IMG/VR virus record: IMGVR_UViG_3300037104_000416
Span: 1-35,161 of that record
Origin: a virus
Lineage: Duplodnaviria > Caudoviricetes
DNA length: 35,161 nt
Reading direction: 5' to 3' (one strand)
Below, piece after piece: positions 1 to 32,147 of this stretch. Within the stretch, counting starts at the first letter, position 1, and the number at the start of each line of letters is the position of its first letter. The position numbers and the translations under genes were made by a program. A model generated the notes under the pieces. That model was given only the letters and a program-made list of their open reading frames with translations, was not told the origin of the DNA and did not search any database.

Positions 1-960
1 GGCCTGCGCCCCGTAGCCGCCGTTGGCGACGGTGACCGATGCCGCGGGGGCGATCAGGAGAGGGAAGCTCTTCTCGTAGAATCTCTGGCAGGCGATGAGC
101 TCGTCGCCGAAGGAGCGCGGGTAGTAGTCGCGGATTTCCGAACCCACGTACAGCCCGCATTCGGTGATCTGGATGATGTCGTTGATCGCGGGGATCGAGT
201 TCGTCCAGATGGTCGGGACGAGGTTCTTGATGTTGGTTCCCGCGGGTACGACGAAGGTCGCCGAGAACCGCTGCATGACCGCCGAGAGCACGCAGTCCAC
301 CCCGCCGCTGCCCCTGGTGTTGTTGATGACGCCCGTCGATTCGGTGAGGACGGGGTTCAGGGCCAGCATGTTGGTTCCCCAGGTGGGGTCCACGTTCACG
401 AGGCCGAACGCCGAGGCGATGGTGGCCGGCGGAGTGTCCACGGTTCCAGAGGCGTTGAGGTACAGCATCCCCAGGCGAAGGGTGGCGGGGTTGGTGAGGT
501 ACCTGGCCTTGAACTGGAAGCGCACGGTCAGCCCGGCGAGCTCCGTTGAGTCAGTTCCGTCCAGCCACTGCATGAGGACGAACTTCCCCGCTCCGGTGAT
601 CTGCTTGAAGTTCCCCATGAAGCGGGCTTTCACTCCCGCCACGGGAGCTCCGCTGTTGTCCACGTTCTGGAACTGGAGGGAGGCCACCGAGTTGACCATG
701 GCCCACCTGTCGGCGGCGTACACGCGCGCCGTGGTGGAACTGTAGGTCGTCAGCGTGTTGGGCACCTGCCGCTGAGCGATGGCGAACTCGGGGTTCATCA
801 GGAAGTTCCTGTCCCTGAAGCCCGAGGCGGAGAGCTGCTGGATCGAGCCGTCCGACTGGATCGCCTTCACCCTTCCGCTGTCGGCGGGGTCCGCGTAGAT
901 GACCGTCTTCCCGCTTACGGGAGCCTGCGGTGTTTCCTGCGAGAGTACGAGCTGGCCCAT
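1..960 (-). CDS. Tail fibre / receptor-binding protein (3' end runs off window)
   Basis: Read manually: ATG at 960, MGQLVLSQETPQAPVSGKT..., open to the window edge. Contains the N-x-x-x-N-x-x-F-x-I-x-Q-R...Y-x-A-D-R-W and EL-x-x-CQR(F/Y)YE motifs common in phage tail-fibre domains. The + strand ORF 164-745 is its shadow. Confidence 0.75.
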   Translation of the reverse strand, partial: MGQLVLSQETPQAPVSGKTVIYADPADSGRVKAIQSDGSIQQLSASGFRDRNFLMNPEFAIAQRQVPNTLTTYSSTTARVYAADRWAMVNSVASLQFQNVDNSGAPVAGVKARFMGNFKQITGAGKFVLMQWLDGTDSTELAGLTVRFQFKARYLTNPATLRLGMLYLNASGTVDTPPATIASAFGLVNVDPTWGTNMLALNPVLTESTGVINNTRGSGGVDCVLSAVMQRFSATFVVPAGTNIKNLVPTIWTNSIPAINDIIQITECGLYVGSEIRDYYPRSFGDELIACQRFYEKSFPLLIAPAASVTVANGGYGAQA

Positions 961-16627: not shown

Positions 16628-16701
16628 TGGCTGGGATGGGATTCGAACCCATGATCTCGGGGATATGAGCCCCGCGAGGACGACCACTCCTCTACCCAAC
16701 T
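16628..16701 (-). tRNA. tRNA-Met(CAU) with initiator (fMet) hallmarks
   Basis: Cloverleaf AGTTGGG-TA-GAGG-AGTGGTCGT-CCTC-G-CGGGG-CTCATAT-CCCCG-AGATC-ATGGG-TTCGAAT-CCCAT-CCCAGCC-A. Has a 1:72 mismatch (A:C), A11:U24 and consecutive G-C pairs closing the anticodon stem. CCA is not encoded. Confidence 0.9.
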
Positions 16702-17848: not shown

Positions 17849-18197
17849 CTGTTCCTCCGATTTGTGTGAGTTCTTCGGTCACATCGTTCATGTTGGCCGT
17901 CGATAATAGCACCTTGGCTTCCGCGGTGTAAGCCCTGAGTGCTGCGGGGTCAGTGAGGTTCACGTTGGGCTCCTCGCCCTCCCGGATGCCCAGCATGGAC
18001 AGGAGCCAGTTGTGGAACGCCACGAGGTCGGGCTTGATGCGCTCGGCCTCCGTCTCGTTGCATCCGCAGCGGTTGGCGATCGCCGAGAGCACCAGCTCCC
18101 CGTAGTCTCCCGTTCCCTGGAAGCACGCGATGAAGGCGGCCCGGAAGGCGTGCTGGATGCGCAACTCCAGAAGGCGCTCTTCGTTGGGTTCGCTCAT
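17835..18197 (-). CDS. Bbp19-like head-module protein
   Basis: 120 aa; F-x-x-x-F...GELVL-x-x-I-x-x-x-C pattern; located between portal and scaffold. Confidence 0.55.
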   Translation of the reverse strand: MSEPNEERLLELRIQHAFRAAFIACFQGTGDYGELVLSAIANRCGCNETEAERIKPDLVAFHNWLLSMLGIREGEEPNVNLTDPAALRAYTAEAKVLLSTANMNDVTEELTQIGGTDGNT

Positions 18198-18469
18198 GTC
18201 CCGTCCAACTCGTTCGCGCCCTTGATGTGTGAGGCTCCGCAGATGAAAGCCGCCGCGGTCACGGACCTCTTGATGTCCTCCTCGGACAGGTGGGCACCCT
18301 GCACTTCCACCATGCCGTCCGTGTAGGCGAGGATGATGACGAACCCCGCGATGTGCTCGCCTTGGCAGTGCTTGGCGAGGGCGTTCTCGGCGCCTGCCGC
18401 GGCGATCATCTTCGCGGCGTTGCGCACGGGAGGGCCGGGGCGCCAGAGCTTGTTGTTGTTCTCGCTCAC
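18194..18469 (-). CDS. Hypothetical protein
   Basis: 91 aa; overlapping start/stop codons with both neighbours. Confidence 0.6.
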   Translation of the reverse strand: MSENNNKLWRPGPPVRNAAKMIAAAGAENALAKHCQGEHIAGFVIILAYTDGMVEVQGAHLSEEDIKRSVTAAAFICGASHIKGANELDGT

Positions 18470-18681
18470 GACTTTCCGAACCCGTGCTTCTTCATCAGGT
18501 CCTTGGCGTCCTTGTCCGCGTCGGCTTCCGCCATGACCCGCTGGTAGTTTCCGAGGAAGATCCCCGCGTACTCCTTCATCATCGTGAGGAGGTTCGAAAG
18601 GCCGTTCTTTTGCTCCCTCGCCAGAGCCTCAAGCTCAGCGACCCGCGCCTTCAGCGCCGCGTTCTCCTGTTCCAAATCCAT
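18466..18681 (-). CDS. Hypothetical coiled-coil protein
   Basis: 71 aa; RBS AGGAGG; heptad pattern LEQENAALKARVAELEAL. Confidence 0.65.
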   Translation of the reverse strand: MDLEQENAALKARVAELEALAREQKNGLSNLLTMMKEYAGIFLGNYQRVMAEADADKDAKDLMKKHGFGKS

Positions 18682-18693
18682 GCCATCCTCCTG

Positions 18694-20427
18694 TTACCCA
18701 AGTGCCGACCCCATCGTGGCCGGTGCGGGCTGCGCTACCGGAGTAGCCGCTCCCCGAACAATCGCACCCTTGGCGTTGGCAGCCGTGGCGCGAGCTCTGT
18801 CCAGATTGATCCTACTTTCAGTCTCTTTCTGTTGCGTGATCGCCTGCTGCTGGGCGGCCTGCGCCCTGCCCTGGCGGATCCGCTGCACGTCCACCATGTT
18901 GCGAATCACGTCCTTCGCCATGTCGTAGGACACCCCGATGTCCCGCGCGTACTGGCTCAGGTCGAAGTTGTCCAGAACGTCTCCCGGCTGGCCCGCGGAG
19001 AGCTGCATCTGCACCAGCGCGTTGATCTGCTGGAGGGCGGCCATCGTGGAGTTCAGCACGAGCTGCTGCCGCTGCATCTGCCAGAGAGGGCCAACGAAGT
19101 TGAGCTTCATCTGGCGGCCCTGCGCGCTGCGCGGGGGAGCGCCGAGCCGGCCGGCCCGAAGCTCCATGAAGAAGAGGTCCTTCAGGAGCGGCTCGACGTA
19201 CTCGACCTCCAGGCGCGAGGAGAACGCGGCCAGCATCGCGGCCTTCTCGCTCTGAAGGCCGTTGACGCCCGTGGCCGTGCTCTTGGTGATGGCGTCCAAG
19301 TTCTGGGTGAGGACGAGAAAGAAGTCCTTGTGGTAGCCGGCCTGCACGTTCTTCTGGATGGCGAGGTACCGCCCCTCCAGCATCCGCGGATCGCCCTCGA
19401 CCTTCTCCCGCTGGTAGTCCTGACCGGGGGGTAGGTAGCTCACGTCGCCCGGGACACGGGTAATTCGGCCGCGGGCGCCGATCGTCGCCTTGATCGACGG
19501 GTCGGCCATTCTCTGGCTGATCTTCAGCATGTCCTGGCTCATGGAGTTGAGCATCTTGATGTTCCCGAGTTGGAGCATCCCGGGGGCGCCCTGGCCCCAC
19601 GGGCCGGCGTCGTAGCTGCGCATGTAGCGCGCGGCGAAGAAGGGCTTCGTCTGGTGCGGGTCTATCCGCAGCGGGTGGAACCAGTCGCACAGCGGGAGGG
19701 TGATCTCAACGTACTCCCCGGCCGGGACCTCAAAGTCCAACTCCGGGCTGTACTTCGTCTGCGGGAAGCAGAAGGAGATGAGCATCCAGAGCTGGTCCTT
19801 GTTATGGTCGTAGGCATCCTGGATGGCCGGCGGGCACGCCTCGTATCCGTACTCGGCGACGATGTTCTGCGCGCTCCACCAGATGTCGCGGATGAGCACG
19901 TCCACCGCTCCCCACTGGTCGTTGTCGATGTAGCACCGATTCAGGTGCAGCGTCTTGTAGGAGGGCCTGCCGAGGGCCGCGTTCTCCTGCCGCCACATGA
20001 TGCCGGTGGAGAAGTCCAGGAGGGATCGGAGGAAGATGCGAAGCTCGTCCTTCCACGGCGAGACGTGAAGCTGCTTGTAGACCTGCTTCTCTGCCTTCTG
20101 GAGGAACATGCCCGCGTTCTCGTTCATCTTCTCGTCGTCGAACTCCATGCGAAACCAGACGTTGGAAAATCCGTAGCCCAGGAGGCCGTCCGCGCACTGG
20201 AGGCTGGACTCGGGTGCGGTCCAGTCGAAAATCTTCATGCCCGTGTTCGGCGAGCGCCCGCTCTGCTCGGGGTCGCTCCTGATGTACCAGTCGCTCATGT
20301 CCTGGTTCACGAAGGAGGCGATCTCGCGCATCGTGTTGTCTTTGAACATGCGCACCTTCCACCGCTGGTGGTAGATGTGCTGGAGCTGCGTGATGCTGTA
20401 ATTGGAGATCGGTAGGGAGAGGCTCAT
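18694..20427 (-). CDS. Portal (head-tail connector) protein
   Basis: Start probably MSLSL at 20427 (ATGA overlap). Motifs IFDWT, WFR, PF-x-x-x-R...WG-x-G-x-PG-x-x-x-LG-x-IKMLN and TAT-x-V...EK-x-x-ML match podoviral portals. Confidence 0.9.
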   Translation of the reverse strand: MSLSLPISNYSITQLQHIYHQRWKVRMFKDNTMREIASFVNQDMSDWYIRSDPEQSGRSPNTGMKIFDWTAPESSLQCADGLLGYGFSNVWFRMEFDDEKMNENAGMFLQKAEKQVYKQLHVSPWKDELRIFLRSLLDFSTGIMWRQENAALGRPSYKTLHLNRCYIDNDQWGAVDVLIRDIWWSAQNIVAEYGYEACPPAIQDAYDHNKDQLWMLISFCFPQTKYSPELDFEVPAGEYVEITLPLCDWFHPLRIDPHQTKPFFAARYMRSYDAGPWGQGAPGMLQLGNIKMLNSMSQDMLKISQRMADPSIKATIGARGRITRVPGDVSYLPPGQDYQREKVEGDPRMLEGRYLAIQKNVQAGYHKDFFLVLTQNLDAITKSTATGVNGLQSEKAAMLAAFSSRLEVEYVEPLLKDLFFMELRAGRLGAPPRSAQGRQMKLNFVGPLWQMQRQQLVLNSTMAALQQINALVQMQLSAGQPGDVLDNFDLSQYARDIGVSYDMAKDVIRNMVDVQRIRQGRAQAAQQQAITQQKETESRINLDRARATAANAKGAIVRGAATPVAQPAPATMGSALG

Positions 20428-20636
20428 GTGATCCAGGTTGGGAAGCGCGGGTCGTCCCCGATGTAGTACGGCGGGAACGGTGAGGGGGGATACCACGGTA
20501 TCGGCTGAGGAATGGGCATTGGCGCCGGGATGAAGATCGGCAAGGGCATGGGGAGAATCTGAGGCAGAACGGGACGCGCCTCAAGGTCCCTGATGCGCTG
20601 CTCCAATTCCTTGATTTTCTTCTGCGTCTCGCTCAT
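20424..20636 (-). CDS. Small proline-rich hypothetical protein
   Basis: 70 aa, MSETQKKIKELEQRIRDLEARP...; RBS GGAGGT; coupled to the portal start. Confidence 0.6.
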   Translation of the reverse strand: MSETQKKIKELEQRIRDLEARPVLPQILPMPLPIFIPAPMPIPQPIPWYPPSPFPPYYIGDDPRFPTWIT

Positions 20637-20640
20637 TGGA

Positions 20641-21417
20641 CTACCTCCATGCACCGCCCCCGGCCTGTAGCGGAACGTCGTGCGCGGAGTCGTCCTTCGC
20701 CGTGAAGGCGGCAAGGGGGTCCCAGGAGGCGATATCGTTCGGAGGAAGGACCTCGCCCTCGACGATCTCGTTCTCGTTGTACTGGACCCACCACGCGGCC
20801 ATGAGGATGCAGATCACGAGGTCGTCGTGGAGATCCTCGGTCTCGGCCATGTACTTTTGCTTTTTCTTGTTGAAGTTGAACCCCGTGAGTTGCGCCTCGA
20901 TGGCCTCCCGGAAGGGGAGGTCCTTGGCGAAAGCAAGGCGTCCCTGCTCCAGGAGAAGCCCGCCATCGGCAACGAGATCGCGCCGTGGCACCAGCCACTC
21001 CTTGATCGTGCGCATGGGGGAAAGCTCTCCCGAGCGGGACTCCCCGAAGACGCGGCCGATCTCCTCGTACACGGGATGCGCTCGGCCACCGTTGGTGAAG
21101 ACGATGCTGTGCGGGAATCCGCCGAGCTTCCGCAGGCGCTCTACTACCGCATCCCCGACGCCGGTTCCGTCCACCAGTTCGTCGCAATTTCCGCGCAGCT
21201 CCTTGCGGCGGATGAGGTTCATGTAGCGCCGCTCCATATCCTCATACCGGAGATTCTCGTCGTGCCACGCCCACACGCACTGGAGCTCGGAGAGGAGACG
21301 GTCGGAGGATCCTGCCCGAGGGTCGCCATCGACGTAAGAGTACGACCGCTTGAACACGGCCTCCGCGTATCTATCGCGCTTCGAAGCTATGTCGAAAGTG
21401 GCAATGTACTCCCTCAA
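20641..21417 (-). CDS. terL: Terminase large subunit, stand-alone RNase H-like nuclease domain
   Basis: Acidic catalytic motifs IATFDIASKRD, VDGTGVGDAVVE and HDDLVICILMAAW. TTG start overlaps the HNH gene stop; lies upstream of the portal. Confidence 0.85.
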   Translation of the reverse strand: MREYIATFDIASKRDRYAEAVFKRSYSYVDGDPRAGSSDRLLSELQCVWAWHDENLRYEDMERRYMNLIRRKELRGNCDELVDGTGVGDAVVERLRKLGGFPHSIVFTNGGRAHPVYEEIGRVFGESRSGELSPMRTIKEWLVPRRDLVADGGLLLEQGRLAFAKDLPFREAIEAQLTGFNFNKKKQKYMAETEDLHDDLVICILMAAWWVQYNENEIVEGEVLPPNDIASWDPLAAFTAKDDSAHDVPLQAGGGAWR

Positions 21418-21911
21418 GCTGCCACCCTATTCCTCTTGGGACGCCGTGCGTTCTCGGCGCGAGTCAGGAATTGACAATTGGATGGTCCATATCCCTGTGA
21501 GGAGTTTTTCCTGTCGATAGTCAGGGAATCGGAATAGCCATTGGCGCGTGCCCACGCAGCGAAGACGGCATAGTTGTGCCACTCTTCGCACACAGAAATA
21601 CCTTTCTCACCATAGGACTTGAATCCACTGGCATAGGAACGTTCACACCTGTCCAGCATGTTCCGCCATGTGACATAAAGACGAGTCCGGTGGGATTCTC
21701 CGTGCTTCCTGTTCAGTTTTCCTACACACTCTCGATGTAGGCATCCGCAGGAACGGGTATCTCCATTCACGATGCACATGGCCTTGATTACTTTTTCGGA
21801 TCCGCATTCACAGGAACATTTCACCCACAACTTTCGATTGGCATCCCTGTGGTCAACCGAAAGAACCGTGAGTCTTCCGAGCTTCCTGCCTATGAGGTTG
21901 ATCGTCTTCAC
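21414..21911 (-). CDS. HNH homing-type endonuclease
   Basis: GRKLGRLTVL...CSCECG...SCGCL...HGES-x-x-RLY-x-x-W-x-x-M-x-x-RC...GISVCEEW...LTIDR-x-N...Y-x-PSNC; visibly more AT-rich than its flanks. Confidence 0.9.
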   Translation of the reverse strand: MKTINLIGRKLGRLTVLSVDHRDANRKLWVKCSCECGSEKVIKAMCIVNGDTRSCGCLHRECVGKLNRKHGESHRTRLYVTWRNMLDRCERSYASGFKSYGEKGISVCEEWHNYAVFAAWARANGYSDSLTIDRKNSSQGYGPSNCQFLTRAENARRPKRNRVAA

Positions 21912-21914
21912 AGA

Positions 21915-22151
21915 TCAGTCTCCCGGGCAGTCGCCGTCCATGTCCATCGCGGGTTCGGCGGGGTCCCAGGGCTTGCCGTCCGCGCGCTGCGCGCCCTTGA
22001 CGTAGTTCCCAGGAGCGGGCCACGGGGAAATCGGAACACGCCCGCCGGGGGTGTAGGCGGGAGCGGGGAGGGAGGTCCCTGGATAGGGGTTGGAGATCCG
22101 AACCGCGTTTCTCCCGCCAGGGAGGGCGGGATTGCTCTTGCTCTTCGCCAT
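21915..22151 (-). CDS. Small proline-rich hypothetical protein
   Basis: 78 aa from MAKSKSNP; TAATG overlap with the upstream gene. Confidence 0.6.
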   Translation of the reverse strand: MAKSKSNPALPGGRNAVRISNPYPGTSLPAPAYTPGGRVPISPWPAPGNYVKGAQRADGKPWDPAEPAMDMDGDCPGD

Positions 22152-22438
22152 TACGAGTTGGGGATCTGGGAGGCGGTCACCATCGCCGCCACCTCGGTAG
22201 GGGTGCAGAGCACCATGAAGACCTGGCCGTGATTCCCCAGGGCAACCAGCTCGTCCATCGCGGCCTTCAACCCCTTGACCTTCACGCAGTCCCTCTCCGA
22301 GGGGGTCCCGTTGCCTCCAAGGAGAGCGGCCTGCACGCTGGCTCCCACGGTGCTGAAGTTGCGGTTCAGGCACTGCTTCAGCGTGAGCGATGCGCCTCCG
22401 ACTTCCGTCGAGTCGATTTCCAGAATATCGACGATCAT
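22151..22438 (-). CDS. Hypothetical protein
   Basis: 95 aa; RBS GAGGGAGGG. Confidence 0.65.
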   Translation of the reverse strand: MIVDILEIDSTEVGGASLTLKQCLNRNFSTVGASVQAALLGGNGTPSERDCVKVKGLKAAMDELVALGNHGQVFMVLCTPTEVAAMVTASQIPNS

Positions 22439-22452
22439 GGGTCCCTCCCTCG

Positions 22453-22595
22453 AAAAAGTTGGGGCGGAAGCGGGCGCCGTGAGGATGAGTCAACGGTGCC
22501 ACGGCGAAGACGCTGTTTCCAGCGGCTATCTGGCGAAATCCCGTGGGAACGCCGAACGGAGGATGGCCGTGCCGCGCGGTCTATCCCGCCCCTTG
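22453..22595 (-). ncRNA. Putative structured small RNA or leader
   Basis: Follows a promoter. Closed by a GGGGCGGGA/TTCCGCCCC stem then AACTTTTT. Internal stems CACGGC/GCCGTG, GGCG/CGCC and CGCTG-GAAA-CAGCG. Two CATCCTC motifs. Confidence 0.55.
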
Positions 22596-22601
22596 TTGTC
22601 G

Positions 22602-22630
22602 AGAATGTGTCGAATCGCGGGGAGAGTCAA
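22602..22630 (-). promoter_or_regulatory. Putative promoter
   Basis: TTGACT-N17-CATTCT; similar in sequence to the promoter at 4237-4265. Confidence 0.45.
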
Positions 22631-22779
22631 GTGCAGGAGTGCTCGGCGTTGGACTTCCGAACGGCGCGGGCTAAGACCACAAGAGCCAGGTTGCGGTGGT
22701 CAAGCGAGACGTTATGCTTCAAGGATTCTTCAAGGGCCTCGGCTATGCAGAGAGCCTCTGATACGCTGGGAAGTTTCAT
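22627..22779 (-). CDS. Small hypothetical protein (50 aa)
   Basis: Read manually: MKLPSVSEALCIAEALEESLKHNVSLDHRNLALVVLARAVRKSNAEHSCT; ATGA overlap with the terminase ATPase stop. Confidence 0.5.
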   Translation of the reverse strand: MKLPSVSEALCIAEALEESLKHNVSLDHRNLALVVLARAVRKSNAEHSCT

Positions 22780-23702
22780 TCCTCGATCTCCTCCGGTTCC
22801 TCTCGGAACGCCTGTATGTCGTCACGCACGATGACCCCGGACTTCAGAGCCCGCAGGTCCTCGCCAACGGCGAATGCGCGCGCGATGTCGCTGTAGCTGA
22901 AAAGCTGGGCGTCCGGCTCGACGAACTCCCCGCACTGCTCTTGCCTGTATTGTTGCTGGCCCAAGTTTTTTAGCTGGACATTCAACTGATGATTGAGATC
23001 GAGATGTCTTGGAGAGTAGCACCCAATGATCCCGCGCGCTGCCTGCTCTGATGCGAACTCCTCCTCGGTCTGCATCATCTCAAGGGAGGTCCCGCTGGTG
23101 GGTGTGTAGGGCGAGCGCACGTAGTACCGCTCCCAGGATCGGTCGTGGAAGACGCGGAAGAAGAAGCCGGTCCGGCCGTTGGGCGTGGAGGGTACCAGAA
23201 CTTCGCACTCCTCGTTCGAGGTCAACATGGGAATGATCCCGCTGGTGATCGCCACGTCCTCGACGCGGGACGCCTCATCGACGATGATGACCGAGGGCTT
23301 GCTGCGCCCGCGGGCCGACTTCTCGGTGGTGCAGAGGACCTCGATGCGGCTCTCGTCTTCGGTGACCACCAGGGAGTCGGACTCCCGGATGAGCTTGGGG
23401 TAGGTTGGGTCGCGGGCCATACAGGCTTTGATCTTCAGCATGTCGTCGGTGGCCTGGTCCTCGGTGGCGGCCAATACGAGGATCCGCGAGCCCGGCTTGT
23501 ACTTCGCGGTATGCGTTGGCACCACGGCTATTATGCTGGACTTTCCTGATTGTCGGGCGCAGTTGAGGCACTTAAACTTGTGTGTCGATGCCAGGAGGCG
23601 GCGTTGCCAAGAGAAAAGCACAAAGCCGGCAACGAGTTTCGCGTAGCGGACGCGATCCATTGCATAGACCGCGTCCTCATACGCCCGATGATCAAGCATC
23701 AA
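22776..23702 (-). CDS. terL: Terminase large subunit, stand-alone ATPase domain
   Basis: Q motif WQRRLL, Walker A CARQSGKS, Walker B IIVDEAS, coupling motif STPNG, and YRQEQCGEF. Stops at about 308 aa with no nuclease domain. Confidence 0.9.
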   Translation of the reverse strand: MMLDHRAYEDAVYAMDRVRYAKLVAGFVLFSWQRRLLASTHKFKCLNCARQSGKSSIIAVVPTHTAKYKPGSRILVLAATEDQATDDMLKIKACMARDPTYPKLIRESDSLVVTEDESRIEVLCTTEKSARGRSKPSVIIVDEASRVEDVAITSGIIPMLTSNEECEVLVPSTPNGRTGFFFRVFHDRSWERYYVRSPYTPTSGTSLEMMQTEEEFASEQAARGIIGCYSPRHLDLNHQLNVQLKNLGQQQYRQEQCGEFVEPDAQLFSYSDIARAFAVGEDLRALKSGVIVRDDIQAFREEPEEIEE

Positions 23703-23708
23703 GAAAGG

Positions 23709-24002
23709 CGCTCCATGATTTTGGGTTACTCGCGGGCATCGGCTCGCTCGGCGCCAGTGGTTGACTCCAGCTCGGTGGCTCGCTCTTTCGCCCTGGGTGA
23801 CTCAAAGATGGTGGCTCGCTCGGCCGTGTTGGTTGTCTTAAGTACAAAGGCTCGCTCCCGCGGCTCTGGGTGACTCGGAGGCTCTGGCTCGCTCTTGTCA
23901 TTTGGTTGACTCGCAGGTGCTGGCTCGCTCGAAGCACGTGGTTGACTCTGGTGTGATGGCTCGCTCACGGTATTTGGTTGACTCGTACCCACTGGCTTTT
24001 GC
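23709..24002 (-). repeat. Dual-repeat interspaced array, TIGR-like (8 units of ~36 nt)
   Basis: Minus strand: GAGCGAGCCA-N8-GAGTCA(A/C)CCA-N8 repeated 8 times with 16 distinct spacers. One spacer is 9 nt, giving a 37-nt unit. Terminal repeats are degenerate. Confidence 0.85.
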
Positions 24003-24004
24003 TT

Positions 24005-24724
24005 TCATTTTGCAGCCTTGATCGTCACTGCGATCTCGTCGGCCAGTTCCGTGAGAACGGAGATGTCGTTCTCAGTGAACTTGAGACGATCCGCCCTGAG
24101 TAAATTCAGGAGCATACGCGCGTGAACCTTCCAGACATTCCCATCGGTTGTCCTGGCCGCGTGCTCTTGCTCCTCGTTCAACGGCTCCTCGTTTTCTGCG
24201 CTGGAAAGATGCGAGGCTCCATAGGAAAGGGGAATCCTCTCTCCCGTACTCTCCACTGTCGCTGAACGTTTCTCCAGAAAATCCTTCATCGCCTCAGAGA
24301 GCATTCCGAGGGCCTTTGCAACTTCAGAAGCCGGGATCTTCATGCGCCTGGCTTTGATGATGAAGTACGCTCGGTCCATGGGAGACATCATTTTCCCCTG
24401 ATGAGCGTTGAATCGCCCCGCGTCAAGGAACATCTCCCTCTCATTCTCATACACTCTGACATCGGCGTCGATCATGGCCTCATCGCCGTACAGATCGAGA
24501 ACGGCGGTCACGCGATGGAAACCGTCCACCACGCGCATGTCAGCCTTGTTGATTACGATTGGCGGAAGGCTTAGACCGGCTTCAAGCGATTCTTTCATCT
24601 GCCTGATATTCGCCGTATCCAGTTTTTGATGGACTGAGTGGCGGGGCCACAGATTCCAGTCGAGGACGCACTCAGGAGAAAGTCTTTTGATCCCCCAACG
24701 GGGGACTGTCTGACAGTACATCAC
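24005..24724 (-). CDS. ParB/Srx-fold protein with HTH-like C-terminal region
   Basis: LPPIVIN...VVDGFHRV-x-A ParB-N motif; N-x-x-x-G-x-x-(M/L)S-x-x-DR; HTH-like ASEVAKALGM. Start codon uncertain. Confidence 0.8.
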   Translation of the reverse strand: MMYCQTVPRWGIKRLSPECVLDWNLWPRHSVHQKLDTANIRQMKESLEAGLSLPPIVINKADMRVVDGFHRVTAVLDLYGDEAMIDADVRVYENEREMFLDAGRFNAHQGKMMSPMDRAYFIIKARRMKIPASEVAKALGMLSEAMKDFLEKRSATVESTGERIPLSYGASHLSSAENEEPLNEEQEHAARTTDGNVWKVHARMLLNLLRADRLKFTENDISVLTELADEIAVTIKAAK

Positions 24725-24742
24725 TTCACAGCCCTTGGCAAG

Positions 24743-24925
24743 TCATCTGCGCGGCTGGAAGGCGGCGACGGTGCGGAAGAGGATTTCCTTCGCCGTGATG
24801 TCCAGACTCTCGATGGACAGGTTGTCGGAGAGGATCGCGATGATGAAACCGGATTTCACATCCTCGATGTCCATTAGCGGAAGCACGCCGCGAGCACGAG
24901 GGTCATTCGGTTCGTCAAACGTCAT
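24743..24925 (-). CDS. Small hypothetical protein
   Basis: 60 aa from MTFDEPND; RBS GGAGG. Confidence 0.5.
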   Translation of the reverse strand: MTFDEPNDPRARGVLPLMDIEDVKSGFIIAILSDNLSIESLDITAKEILFRTVAAFQPRR

Positions 24926-25649
24926 CGGGGGTTGCCTCCAAGGCCAGGGCCTTTTGCTCGAACATGGCGACAACACTCTCACGGGCCTCGGGGAACGGGG
25001 CCAGCGCAGCAATGATGTCGCTCATCACGAAGGACCAGATTTCGGTGCGGCTGATGTTGATCTTCACTTCCCCGCCCATCTTCTGGAGGTAGGCCACGCG
25101 GTCGATGACCTCCATGGCCAGGCGCATCGCGTCGTGGTACAGGCGGCGGGTGTCGTCGCGCTTGACGGTGAACTCGAAGGCGGACTTCCCGCTCTCTGCC
25201 ATCTGCGCGATGAGGACGGAGAGCTGGGTGGTCTTGCGCCGCGTGATGGGCGCGCCGGCCTTGGTGACCTCGCCGGTGTCCTGGTCGTAGTGGGCCACGA
25301 CCTCCTCGGCTTGGAGGCCCATCCAGATCTTGGTGGGGTCGTTGGGGTCCTTCAGGTAGTCCTCGAAGGCGGTGATGTTCCGCGCCGCCCGGTCGGCCAT
25401 CTCCTCCAGCTTGGTGAGGAGGCCGTCCACGGTGCGCATCCCGCGCGCCGCGCGCCTTTGCGCCAGGACCTCGGCAACCCACTTCTGGCGGTACTGGCGG
25501 ACGGTGGCCGCCGATATCCCGTGGCGGCGTCCGATCTGCGCGTCGGTTCCGCGGTCGTCCTCGATGTCCTTGAGGATGGCGGCCCTCCGCGGGTGGGTGT
25601 CGATGACGGTGGCCTGCGGGGCGCGAAGGTGGCGGGAGGGTGTGCTCAT
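24915..25649 (-). CDS. Probable terminase small subunit
   Basis: N-terminal HP-x-R-x-x-I...HTH (TDAQIGRRHGISAATVRQY), then helical oligomerisation-type segments; upstream of the terL genes. Confidence 0.55.
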   Translation of the reverse strand: MSTPSRHLRAPQATVIDTHPRRAAILKDIEDDRGTDAQIGRRHGISAATVRQYRQKWVAEVLAQRRAARGMRTVDGLLTKLEEMADRAARNITAFEDYLKDPNDPTKIWMGLQAEEVVAHYDQDTGEVTKAGAPITRRKTTQLSVLIAQMAESGKSAFEFTVKRDDTRRLYHDAMRLAMEVIDRVAYLQKMGGEVKINISRTEIWSFVMSDIIAALAPFPEARESVVAMFEQKALALEATPDDV

Positions 25650-25972
25650 CCCCGGATCCTCCTCTCCTGCTTGTACATCTCCCGCCAGTCGGGGTTGGGA
25701 TCGACGAGGAAGTCCCCGAGCCAGTTCTGCGGCCTCGGGTCTCCCTTCAGGTACACGTCGAACCGCTCGCCTTTCAGAGGAGTCACCTTCATCCCGAGGA
25801 ACGTCGTCACGTCCTCGAACTTCATCCCGTACTTGGCGGCGAACTCGAACCGCAGGTAGTCAACGGCCGTCTGGTAGCCGAAGCGAATGTGATCGACCTC
25901 CCTGCCCATGTCGCGCAGGGCGAGGCACTTCCTCTTGATGCAGTAGACCATGAAGTCGGGCTCTTCTCTCAT
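25646..25972 (-). CDS. Hypothetical protein
   Basis: 108 aa from MREEPDFM; ATGA overlaps at both ends. Confidence 0.6.
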   Translation of the reverse strand: MREEPDFMVYCIKRKCLALRDMGREVDHIRFGYQTAVDYLRFEFAAKYGMKFEDVTTFLGMKVTPLKGERFDVYLKGDPRPQNWLGDFLVDPNPDWREMYKQERRIRG

Positions 25973-26544
25973 CGGGTGAGCCTCACAAGCTCGATGAGCT
26001 TGGACAGGACGAAGCGGGTCATCTTCAGGTCCCATGAGGCGTCGTGGGCGCCGGCGGTGTCCATCCCGAAGTGGCGGGCCAGGTCGGTGAGCTTCGCGTC
26101 GGAAAGGGGAACGTCCACGCCCATGTAGGCCAGCCATGCCAGTGTAGAGGACGGGTCCAGGGCCCCGAAGTGGAACCACGAGCCGAAGTAGTCGTCGTGG
26201 TGGTCCTTCCAGAGTACGCGCAGGAAGCGCATGTCGAAGTCCCGAACGTTGTACCCGCCGGCCATGAACTTGTCGTGGTGGTCGTACTTCTCCACGTACT
26301 GGCCGAAGATGTCCAGCAGGGCGTAGTACATCTCCCGCGGCGGGGGGAATCCCAGGAGCTGCCCGCGGCTGAAGTGGTTGATGTTCAGGGCCGAGTCGTC
26401 GATGGCCTTGCCCTCGCAGGAGGAGCGCAACTCTCCCTCGGCAACTTCCTGGCCGTCGATCTCCACGGCGTAGGACAGGCTGATGATGCCGTGGCGCGCA
26501 GGGTCGAGGCCGGAGGTCTCCAAATCTACCCAGAATACCTTCAT
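25969..26544 (-). CDS. DEDDh 3'-5' exonuclease (DnaQ-like)
   Basis: ExoI VDLETSGL, ExoII GYNVRDFD, ExoIII AHDASWD. Confidence 0.92.
   Translation of the reverse strand: MKVFWVDLETSGLDPARHGIISLSYAVEIDGQEVAEGELRSSCEGKAIDDSALNINHFSRGQLLGFPPPREMYYALLDIFGQYVEKYDHHDKFMAGGYNVRDFDMRFLRVLWKDHHDDYFGSWFHFGALDPSSTLAWLAYMGVDVPLSDAKLTDLARHFGMDTAGAHDASWDLKMTRFVLSKLIELVRLTR

Positions 26545-31486: not shown

Positions 31487-32147
<661 letters not shown>

Follow-up and report, generated by a model that had tools for sequence, protein, structure and literature searches.

The locus between two packaging genes of this phage is very probably what remains of a tasParB-tasA-TIGR cassette, and comparison with related genomes makes it highly probable that two of its guides were aimed at the terminase gene (terL) of sibling phages. 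These two natural guide targets are what is new here; the pairing of tasParB with such arrays has already been published. The window is the whole 35,161-nt stretch of DNA that was analysed, and the locus within it holds the following features.

22776..23702, minus strand: terL, ATPase part, from a Pfam/PHROG-type family search and comparison with relative G002
23702..23714, minus strand: array end, with the E-R-L-S codons that close arrays inside tasA, fused to the terL start and holding GGAG
23709..24002, minus strand: TIGR dual-repeat array of eight units, from the repeat parse; repeats close to those of the SpTIGR array
23976..24008, minus strand: putative tasA relic start, overlapping the parB stop; first 11 codons those of TasA P0333
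24005..24724, minus strand: tasParB-like gene, with predicted ParB/Srx N-terminal domain, helix-turn-helix region and C-terminal helices; body intact
24674..24675, minus strand: deletion junction (about 36 nt), where parB lost its ribosome site and start codon along with its first 8 codons
24691..24705, minus strand: predicted leader hairpin, kept upstream of parB in relatives; z-score of the region not significant
24713..24741, minus strand: promoter-like TTGCCA-N17-TACTGT, seen in the sequence, weak (8/12), at the cassette's very edge
24915..25649, minus strand: probable terS, from its position and a helix-turn-helix match below the cut-off; flanks the cassette

An ORF profile search found portal, capsid, terminase and integrase genes, and the phage looks tailed and temperate. 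A near-identical record, G001, is identical to the window over 18008-26292 and joins both window ends with 6.1 kb extra, so the phage has a circular genome of about 41.3 kb, the joining stretch being taken from G001 and not from the window's own record. The window's proteins were also found, identical, on a 41,313-nt contig, and all metagenome runs holding at least half of the window came from peat. The preliminary description placed the locus between terS and terL. The terL ATPase gene is as described, likely starting at TTG 23702, the counterpart of the G002 GTG start, whereas terS stands on position and the helix-turn-helix match (a PHROG search with 24915..25649 found no match), and a 59-codon ORF sits between it and the promoter-like sequence.

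The large terminase itself seems split, with a likely nuclease gene at 20641-21417 (minus strand), identified from position and sequence without a named family match, in addition to the ATPase gene at 22776-23702. An HNH gene (21414-21911) and two small ORFs lie between the two parts. G002 has a different endonuclease in the slot of the HNH gene, and in G035 the terminase parts are also about 1.1 kb apart.

The array, the parB gene and what was lost

Read from its repeats, the array is confirmed as a TIGR dual-repeat array. Each unit is made of a 10-nt edge repeat, an 8-nt spacer A, a 10-nt loop repeat and an 8-nt spacer B, with a period of 36 nt and a single 37-nt step; repeats were set at 10 nt and spacers at 8 nt because, in 520 units parsed from related loci, about 96% have an A right after the 9-nt repeat core. 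CCA (box C) closes 14 of the 16 repeats preceding a spacer, and both repeat types begin with xAG. A degenerate first edge repeat begins at 24002, 2 nt past the parB stop (24007-24005), agreeing with the earlier observation that the array adjoins a gene of the ParB/Srx fold with a DGFHR motif, and the last repeat is half-length and ends at 23709. A CRISPR array was rejected on the two alternating 10-nt repeats with 8-nt spacers, the lack of an Rfam CRISPR match and the lack of any cas family in the scanned ORFs. The SpTIGR-TasH system of Salicola phage CGphi29 has the same 36-nt units and 8-nt spacers with nearly the same repeats, and the unit-5 loop is the common SpTIGR loop, but TasH carries an HNH nuclease and lacks a ParB partner, whereas the TasA of the family described here has no nuclease domain.

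The array carries defects: an in-frame stop in unit 3, an extra base in unit 4, and changes in the box C that precedes units 5 and 8. The two units with altered box C are also the two with targets (see below), which would occur by chance 1 time in 28. The middle units, which hold a stop and a frameshift, may have come from a downstream array. Stop depletion in spacers, as a general rule of dual coding, was not significant in either count (48 vs 58 ± 6 and 49 vs 58 ± 6). In two related loci (L023:7609-8133 and L030:7582-8103), downstream arrays of about 14 units are open frames with an ATG.

The product of the ORF at 24005-24724 is confirmed as having the ParB/Srx fold, as predicted by AlphaFold (pLDDT 94) and matched by Foldseek, where KorB, ParB-CDP and Noc came first (E 4e-6 to 5e-5). 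Compared with pNOB8 ParB, the model gave a VIA Z of 11.4 (rmsd 3.4 over 141 residues). The PHROG match was ParB-like (5.6e-7), and a Pfam search gave the ORF no name. Across an alignment of 55 ParB sequences, G67, R70, R27 and N105 are invariant and A73 nearly so, and the motif reads DGFHR, as in the window. The nucleotide-binding motif of ParB CTPases is GxxRxxA with a conserved Arg and Asn, and characterised ParB CTPases carry GERR; with DGFHR in place of GERR, clamp behaviour of TasParB is not assured. No ParA family was found among the 44 window ORFs or 88 neighbour ORFs of related cassettes. Co-folding of two copies of TasA residues 52-308 with one ParB scored 0.00, which has no bearing either way.

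In the closest relatives the tasA start overlaps the stop codon of parB, and in-frame reading of the array gives the first 40-110 residues of TasA. The window has an overlapping tasA-type ATG at 24008, which opens the 11 codons equal to those of P0333, and an E-R-L-S end running into terL, so the body of tasA appears to have been deleted. Two profile searches in six frames found no tasA in the window or the G001 bridging stretch (best E 5.3), and in a positive control the same kind of tasA profile gave matches in 19 of 33 other records. A tasA in the part of the genome outside the window was ruled out, as G001 bridges the window ends without one. With no Nop-domain tas gene beside the array and only the first tasA codons left, this is not a complete TIGR-Tas system. 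The Nop domain of TasA-type proteins is reported as needed to cut arrays into 36-nt guides. Lacking tasA, the window copy alone would be unable to make or use guides, and the earlier proposal that array processing affects terL translation fails, for this genome on its own, for want of that domain.

The second loss is the parB start. The hairpin-to-DW distance is 44 in the window and 80-81 in L074 and L075, and the sibling form P0251 is identical over 222/222 downstream of the junction and has the normal family start. A 99%-identical contig in run X10 also has an intact parB start. The body of parB has no stop or frameshift, and its remaining in-frame starts are 24724 and 24721 only. These had been taken as the start of the ORF; they lie inside the promoter-like sequence, upstream of the likely transcript start, and are not the family start, though full-length ParB could be made from them on read-through transcripts. 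This cassette copy is likely inert. The promoter reported earlier, TTGCCA-N17-TACTGT, is present as a sequence at 24741-24713, but its status as a promoter is weak, as it matches at 8/12 positions and a consensus promoter scan gives no call. By eye, its -10 box lies 7 nt before the leader hairpin, as do better promoter-like boxes in L075, L077, L078 and L079, and the hairpin is likely the transcript 5′ end. Homology to the cassette-free G002 ends at 24743. At 24675 and 23703 alike, the junction is flanked immediately on its left by one and the same 6-nt pyrimidine run and immediately on its right by TGA, which may be chance.

The GGAG of the array end (23714-23711) lies 8 nt ahead of TTG 23702 and likely serves as the terL ribosome site, a plausible suggestion of the preliminary description; sibling contigs have a better site through a change at 23715. 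Both tasA-less forms (see below) retain the array end, consistent with this use. Under a strict pattern, the window type of array end was found in 0 of 61 upstream or downstream arrays and in 1 of 6 internal arrays, and ERLS is also present in P0333, P0292 and P0269.

Alleles of the slot and relatives of the cassette

Comparison with relatives supports reading the window locus as an inserted cassette. The parB gene, the array and tasA are all missing from G002 and G035; the slot holds a different small gene in G002 and only about 160 nt in G035. The cassette had been called self-contained as parB plus array, which does not hold, as the guide-binding TasA is deleted and the parB start lost. In the metagenome runs, four alleles occupy the slot. 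The window form (i) was found in X4 and X6-X9, and an X4 contig of 1306 nt covers 23685-24990 with 0 differences from it. X10 has an allele (ii) with a 99%-identical parB, an intact start and other spacers; its contig joins the intact-start parB to repeats, and the loose end codes for residues of the P0333 N-terminus. In an array-only allele (iii), found in X4 and X6, 338 nt separate terS from the two final units, and an empty, G002-like allele (iv) is present in X10. Alleles without tasA are common in the peat runs. The deleted form outside X4 is spanned over both junctions by X6, by X7 and X9 with each junction on separate contigs, and by X8 at the parB junction only. An assembly artefact was ruled out, as contigs of four other studies span the deleted form. 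P0251, P0333 and P0260 (a terL, 96% identical) each come from an ENA contig of 5585 nt and, given this equal size, we read them as sitting on one contig.

A family search starting from the 55-sequence alignment gave 160 loci, with the window replacing its own duplicate, and the 160 rows reduce to 139 distinct ParB sequences; the metagenome part is the best 80 of 292. In a FastTree ParB tree, made without a clade test, the window is nested with L074-L079 in a clade of 86 rows with support 100 (metagenome rows again the best 80 of 292). With the same best 80 of 292, tasA lies within 1.5 kb in 73 of the 75 informative clade rows (11 end too soon), the exceptions being the window and L022, where the array is missing too, and outside the clade a tasA neighbour is found in 2 of 48 informative rows. 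The check proposed beforehand, that homologues be scored for arrays and Nop-domain genes, thus bears out the tie of guide arrays to this ParB-like gene: a detected array and tasA occur together in 63 of the 86 clade sequences, counted with the best 80 of 292 metagenome rows. By profile, the clade neighbour gene matches TasH 21kl (9e-24) and TasR 9mty (3.5e-22), with Pfam Transposase_20 in 9/9.

According to Faure et al. 2025 (PMC12045711), tasParB is operonised with tasA, and arrays with 10-nt edge and loop repeats lie upstream, downstream or between the genes. The TasA proteins of L077 and L006 are present in Table S1 of that paper, and from these shared entries we infer that the window parB belongs to the published tasParB kind; the pairing of parB and array, presented as new in the preliminary description, is already there as tasParB in section 44. 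The window copy differs from those operons in having no tasA and no parB start, and natural targets are identified here. The cassette was found in many unrelated contexts, and a fixed tie to terminase genes was rejected as not general, with a Pfam terminase or portal neighbour in 6 of 37 cassettes.

Outside the main clade, distant ParB-like genes lie near Tas-like genes in L033 (two) and L071, suggesting independent or older ParB-Tas pairings. Phage ParB-like proteins 25-37% identical (L024-L073, L154-L164) are without tasA or such arrays, and this group has 1178 representatives at E up to 0.001.

Guide matches in terL of relatives

Both main TIGR papers give natural guide targets as unknown and describe short spacers drowning in false matches, and PMC12045711 calls genuine guide targets hard to identify. 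Limiting our search to the carrier's close relatives removed false matches, and two targets were found, both in the terminase gene adjoining the cassette. In the published geometry, spacer A lies on one strand and spacer B on the other with no gap, and each target was read as spacer A plus the reverse complement of spacer B, with the order derived from the reported 3′ overhang.

23822..23847, minus strand: unit 5, spacer A 23847-23840 and spacer B 23829-23822; 16/16 in G002 terL
23497..23512, plus strand: own counterpart of unit 5, in terL; three synonymous mismatches at 23505, 23508 and 23511, third codon positions
23714..23739, minus strand: unit 8, spacer A 23739-23732 and spacer B 23721-23714
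23419..23434, plus strand: own counterpart of unit 8, in terL; four mismatches to the sibling guide, all synonymous

The unit-5 match in G002 terL is exact and gapless, with 4.5e-4 exact matches expected in G002 for all eight units under a second-order model. Its 16-mer is found in 45 of 2.9 million viral contigs, and the G002 record is the only one of these related to the phage. Unit 8 matches G035 terL at 14/16 and G002 terL at 13/16, and the sibling form of this unit, which differs from the window at two letters, matches at 16/16 and 15/16, respectively. The sibling letters were fixed before G035 was retrieved, and the expectation for its 16/16 match is 2.8e-5. The G035 match lies at the same codons as the G002 match, and the unit-8 site in G002 is 78 nt from the unit-5 site. 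Both targets are 190-280 nt inside terL, beside the insertion site, and the tandem opposite-strand spacer geometry appears to hold for unit 5 and sibling unit 8. For spacer acquisition, this means that the two spacers of a pair would derive together from a single uninterrupted 16 bp of a relative's DNA.

The carrier's own terL has synonymous differences at both sites and is in that sense a spared ("immune") allele. Synonymous codon differences between this terL and that of G002 number 36/96 in the first conserved codons and 33/197 in the rest (69/293 overall), and as the mismatches at the two sites are close to this local divergence, there is no clear sign of selective escape. Exactly the three letters that match unit 5 are present in contigs of X4, X7 and X8, so DNA of phages bearing the target occurs alongside the carrier. 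Units 1-4, 6 and 7 and one sibling-only unit gave nothing above chance in G002, G035, G036, G037 or the phage's own genome; GC-rich unit 4 has a 14/16 match in G036 that we attribute to chance, with about 0.09 such matches expected per 43-kb genome.

Family-wide, 526 units were compared with 2.1 Mb. Matches with at most 1 mismatch numbered 49 vs 35.8 in within-locus shuffles (0/200 shuffles reached this), and exact matches numbered 3 vs 1.5 expected, which is not significant (42/200 shuffles). Near matches to the own locus were enriched across 69 loci (57 vs 38 ± 5.7), while a whole-genome near-match test on 14 records showed no enrichment (159 vs 139 ± 15) and a codon-phase test was also negative. 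These results are mixed, and a general targeting rule is therefore a lead and not a result. A guide pair in L083 is exact to the ribosome site and start of tasParB at L007:2848, L008:1157 and L118:369, and differs from its own start, possibly reflecting TIGR-against-TIGR targeting; one exact match is within chance for the set. The same applies to a guide in L014 that is exact (16/16) at L015:974 (minus strand), both being cassette-bearing viral records.

A possible role among co-infecting phages

For the tasParB-tasA-TIGR cassette that is broken here, we lean slightly towards the reading that its intact form blocks packaging-gene expression in co-infecting relatives. Phage competition, one of the roles proposed beforehand, is the likely one in view of the terL matches in cassette-free relatives, and the window copy is likely a phage-versus-phage weapon, now inert. 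TasA-type proteins are reported to bind DNA without cutting it and to repress transcription (bioRxiv 10.64898/2026.09.09.750476), where TasA and dead TasR repressors are, like the relatives here, nuclease-free Tas proteins with in-frame arrays in the 5′ end of tas. In an intact cassette, TasA would sit on the rival's terL and block its transcription, and a block by binding rather than cutting is the part we favour with somewhat more assurance. TasParB might be loaded or locked there as a clamp, spreading the block over the packaging region in the manner of KorA-KorB; ParB as a TasA-anchored clamp is a tentative suggestion, and we would sooner expect otherwise. On plasmid RK2, KorB-KorA is a ParB-fold clamp with a site-bound partner (PMC11790492), and KorB is the top structural match at 13% identity, but that system uses protein-DNA operators and not guides, and TasParB is likened to it by predicted fold. 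The carrier would be spared through the mismatches of its own terL to the guides, and two deletions would have silenced the cassette in this lineage, with the array end retained for the terL ribosome site. Since terminase is able to work in trans when phages co-infect, shutting off terL of the rival by itself may bring little advantage.

A wider reading, which we consider doubtful, is that TasA-TasParB cassettes are RNA-guided weapons against closest kin, with guides to the essential gene by the insertion site of cassette-free siblings and TasA anchoring a ParB-fold effector that would silence or cut the packaging locus of the rival, and that they spread or prevail like a programmable homing element. 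If true, the empty, intact, decapitated and array-only alleles of the peat population would be the successive stages of a full life cycle at a single slot. With P0333 and P0251 as the proteins, a guide, its target and an immune allele are at hand for testing TasA and TasParB directly, and the search itself is a recipe for finding more targets. A literature search, with subscription papers outside its scope, found no paper pairing tigRNA with terminase and no title on natural targets among the TIGR-Tas papers listed.

Some ParB/Srx proteins are nucleases, and an alternative that we regard as unlikely is RNA-guided homing, in which terL of the rival is marked by TasA and nicked or cut by the ParB/Srx protein, after which the cassette, together with the immune 5′ terL, is copied into the rival during repair. 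Both targets lying 190-280 nt into the gene next to the insertion site would fit this, as would the presence of the cassette in many unrelated contexts and the greater divergence from G002 in the 5′ third of terL (36/96 vs 33/197 codons), which a co-converted tract could show. Clustering near essential genes is described for homing nucleases (PMC10055350), and free-standing homing endonucleases (PMC10055350; T4 mobE, PMC2790892) likewise sit by an essential gene and are aimed at the allele in relatives without them; the window cassette differs in picking its target by RNA and in having no known nuclease. Against homing, TasA has no nuclease domain, the structural matches of the ParB model are clamp-type (ParB, KorB, Noc), and six of the eight guides have no match near the site.

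More unlikely again is that the tasA-less locus is active in trans, supplying guides for the TasA of a co-resident intact sibling as a cheater or guide donor. The promoter-like site, the leader hairpin and most repeats are kept, the phage has an integrase, and intact-start, deleted, array-only and empty alleles are present in the same peat runs. However, at two positions unit 8 of the window departs from its target and the sibling form agrees with it, the box C preceding units 5 and 8 has changed, unit 4 is one base too long, and no other array without tasA was found among the 75 informative clade members (metagenome rows the best 80 of 292). It is improbable that the cassette is a passenger, with the matches recording spacer pick-up near the insertion site in an ancestor and having no role in competition. 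The array lies beside both targets, near matches to the own locus are enriched across the family and the carrier's own mismatches equal background divergence, all in keeping with pick-up, but the guides match two relatives (86% and 68% DNA identity in terL) better than the carrier, and as TasA binding represses genes such guides are unlikely to be neutral. That the ParB-like protein is itself guided by the array RNAs, without any Tas protein, has almost nothing to recommend it beyond the adjacency of parB and array, a parB body without stop or frameshift and the lack of tasA in the genome, as 73 of 75 informative clade members have tasA (best 80 of 292 metagenome rows), the other tasA-less one (L022) has no array, the array itself forms the 5′ part of the tasA gene, the parB start is lost, and processing and binding are Nop-domain functions.

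Elsewhere in the genome, a tRNA gene (16628-16701, minus strand) lies immediately upstream of the major capsid gene, and a low-complexity tandem repeat (31797-32079, periods 9-15) adjoins the integrase. Window positions 1-793 (compared with L003:1-793) are in a tail-fibre-like gene where G001, elsewhere identical, is only 87.5% identical, a variable tip in near-clonal phages.
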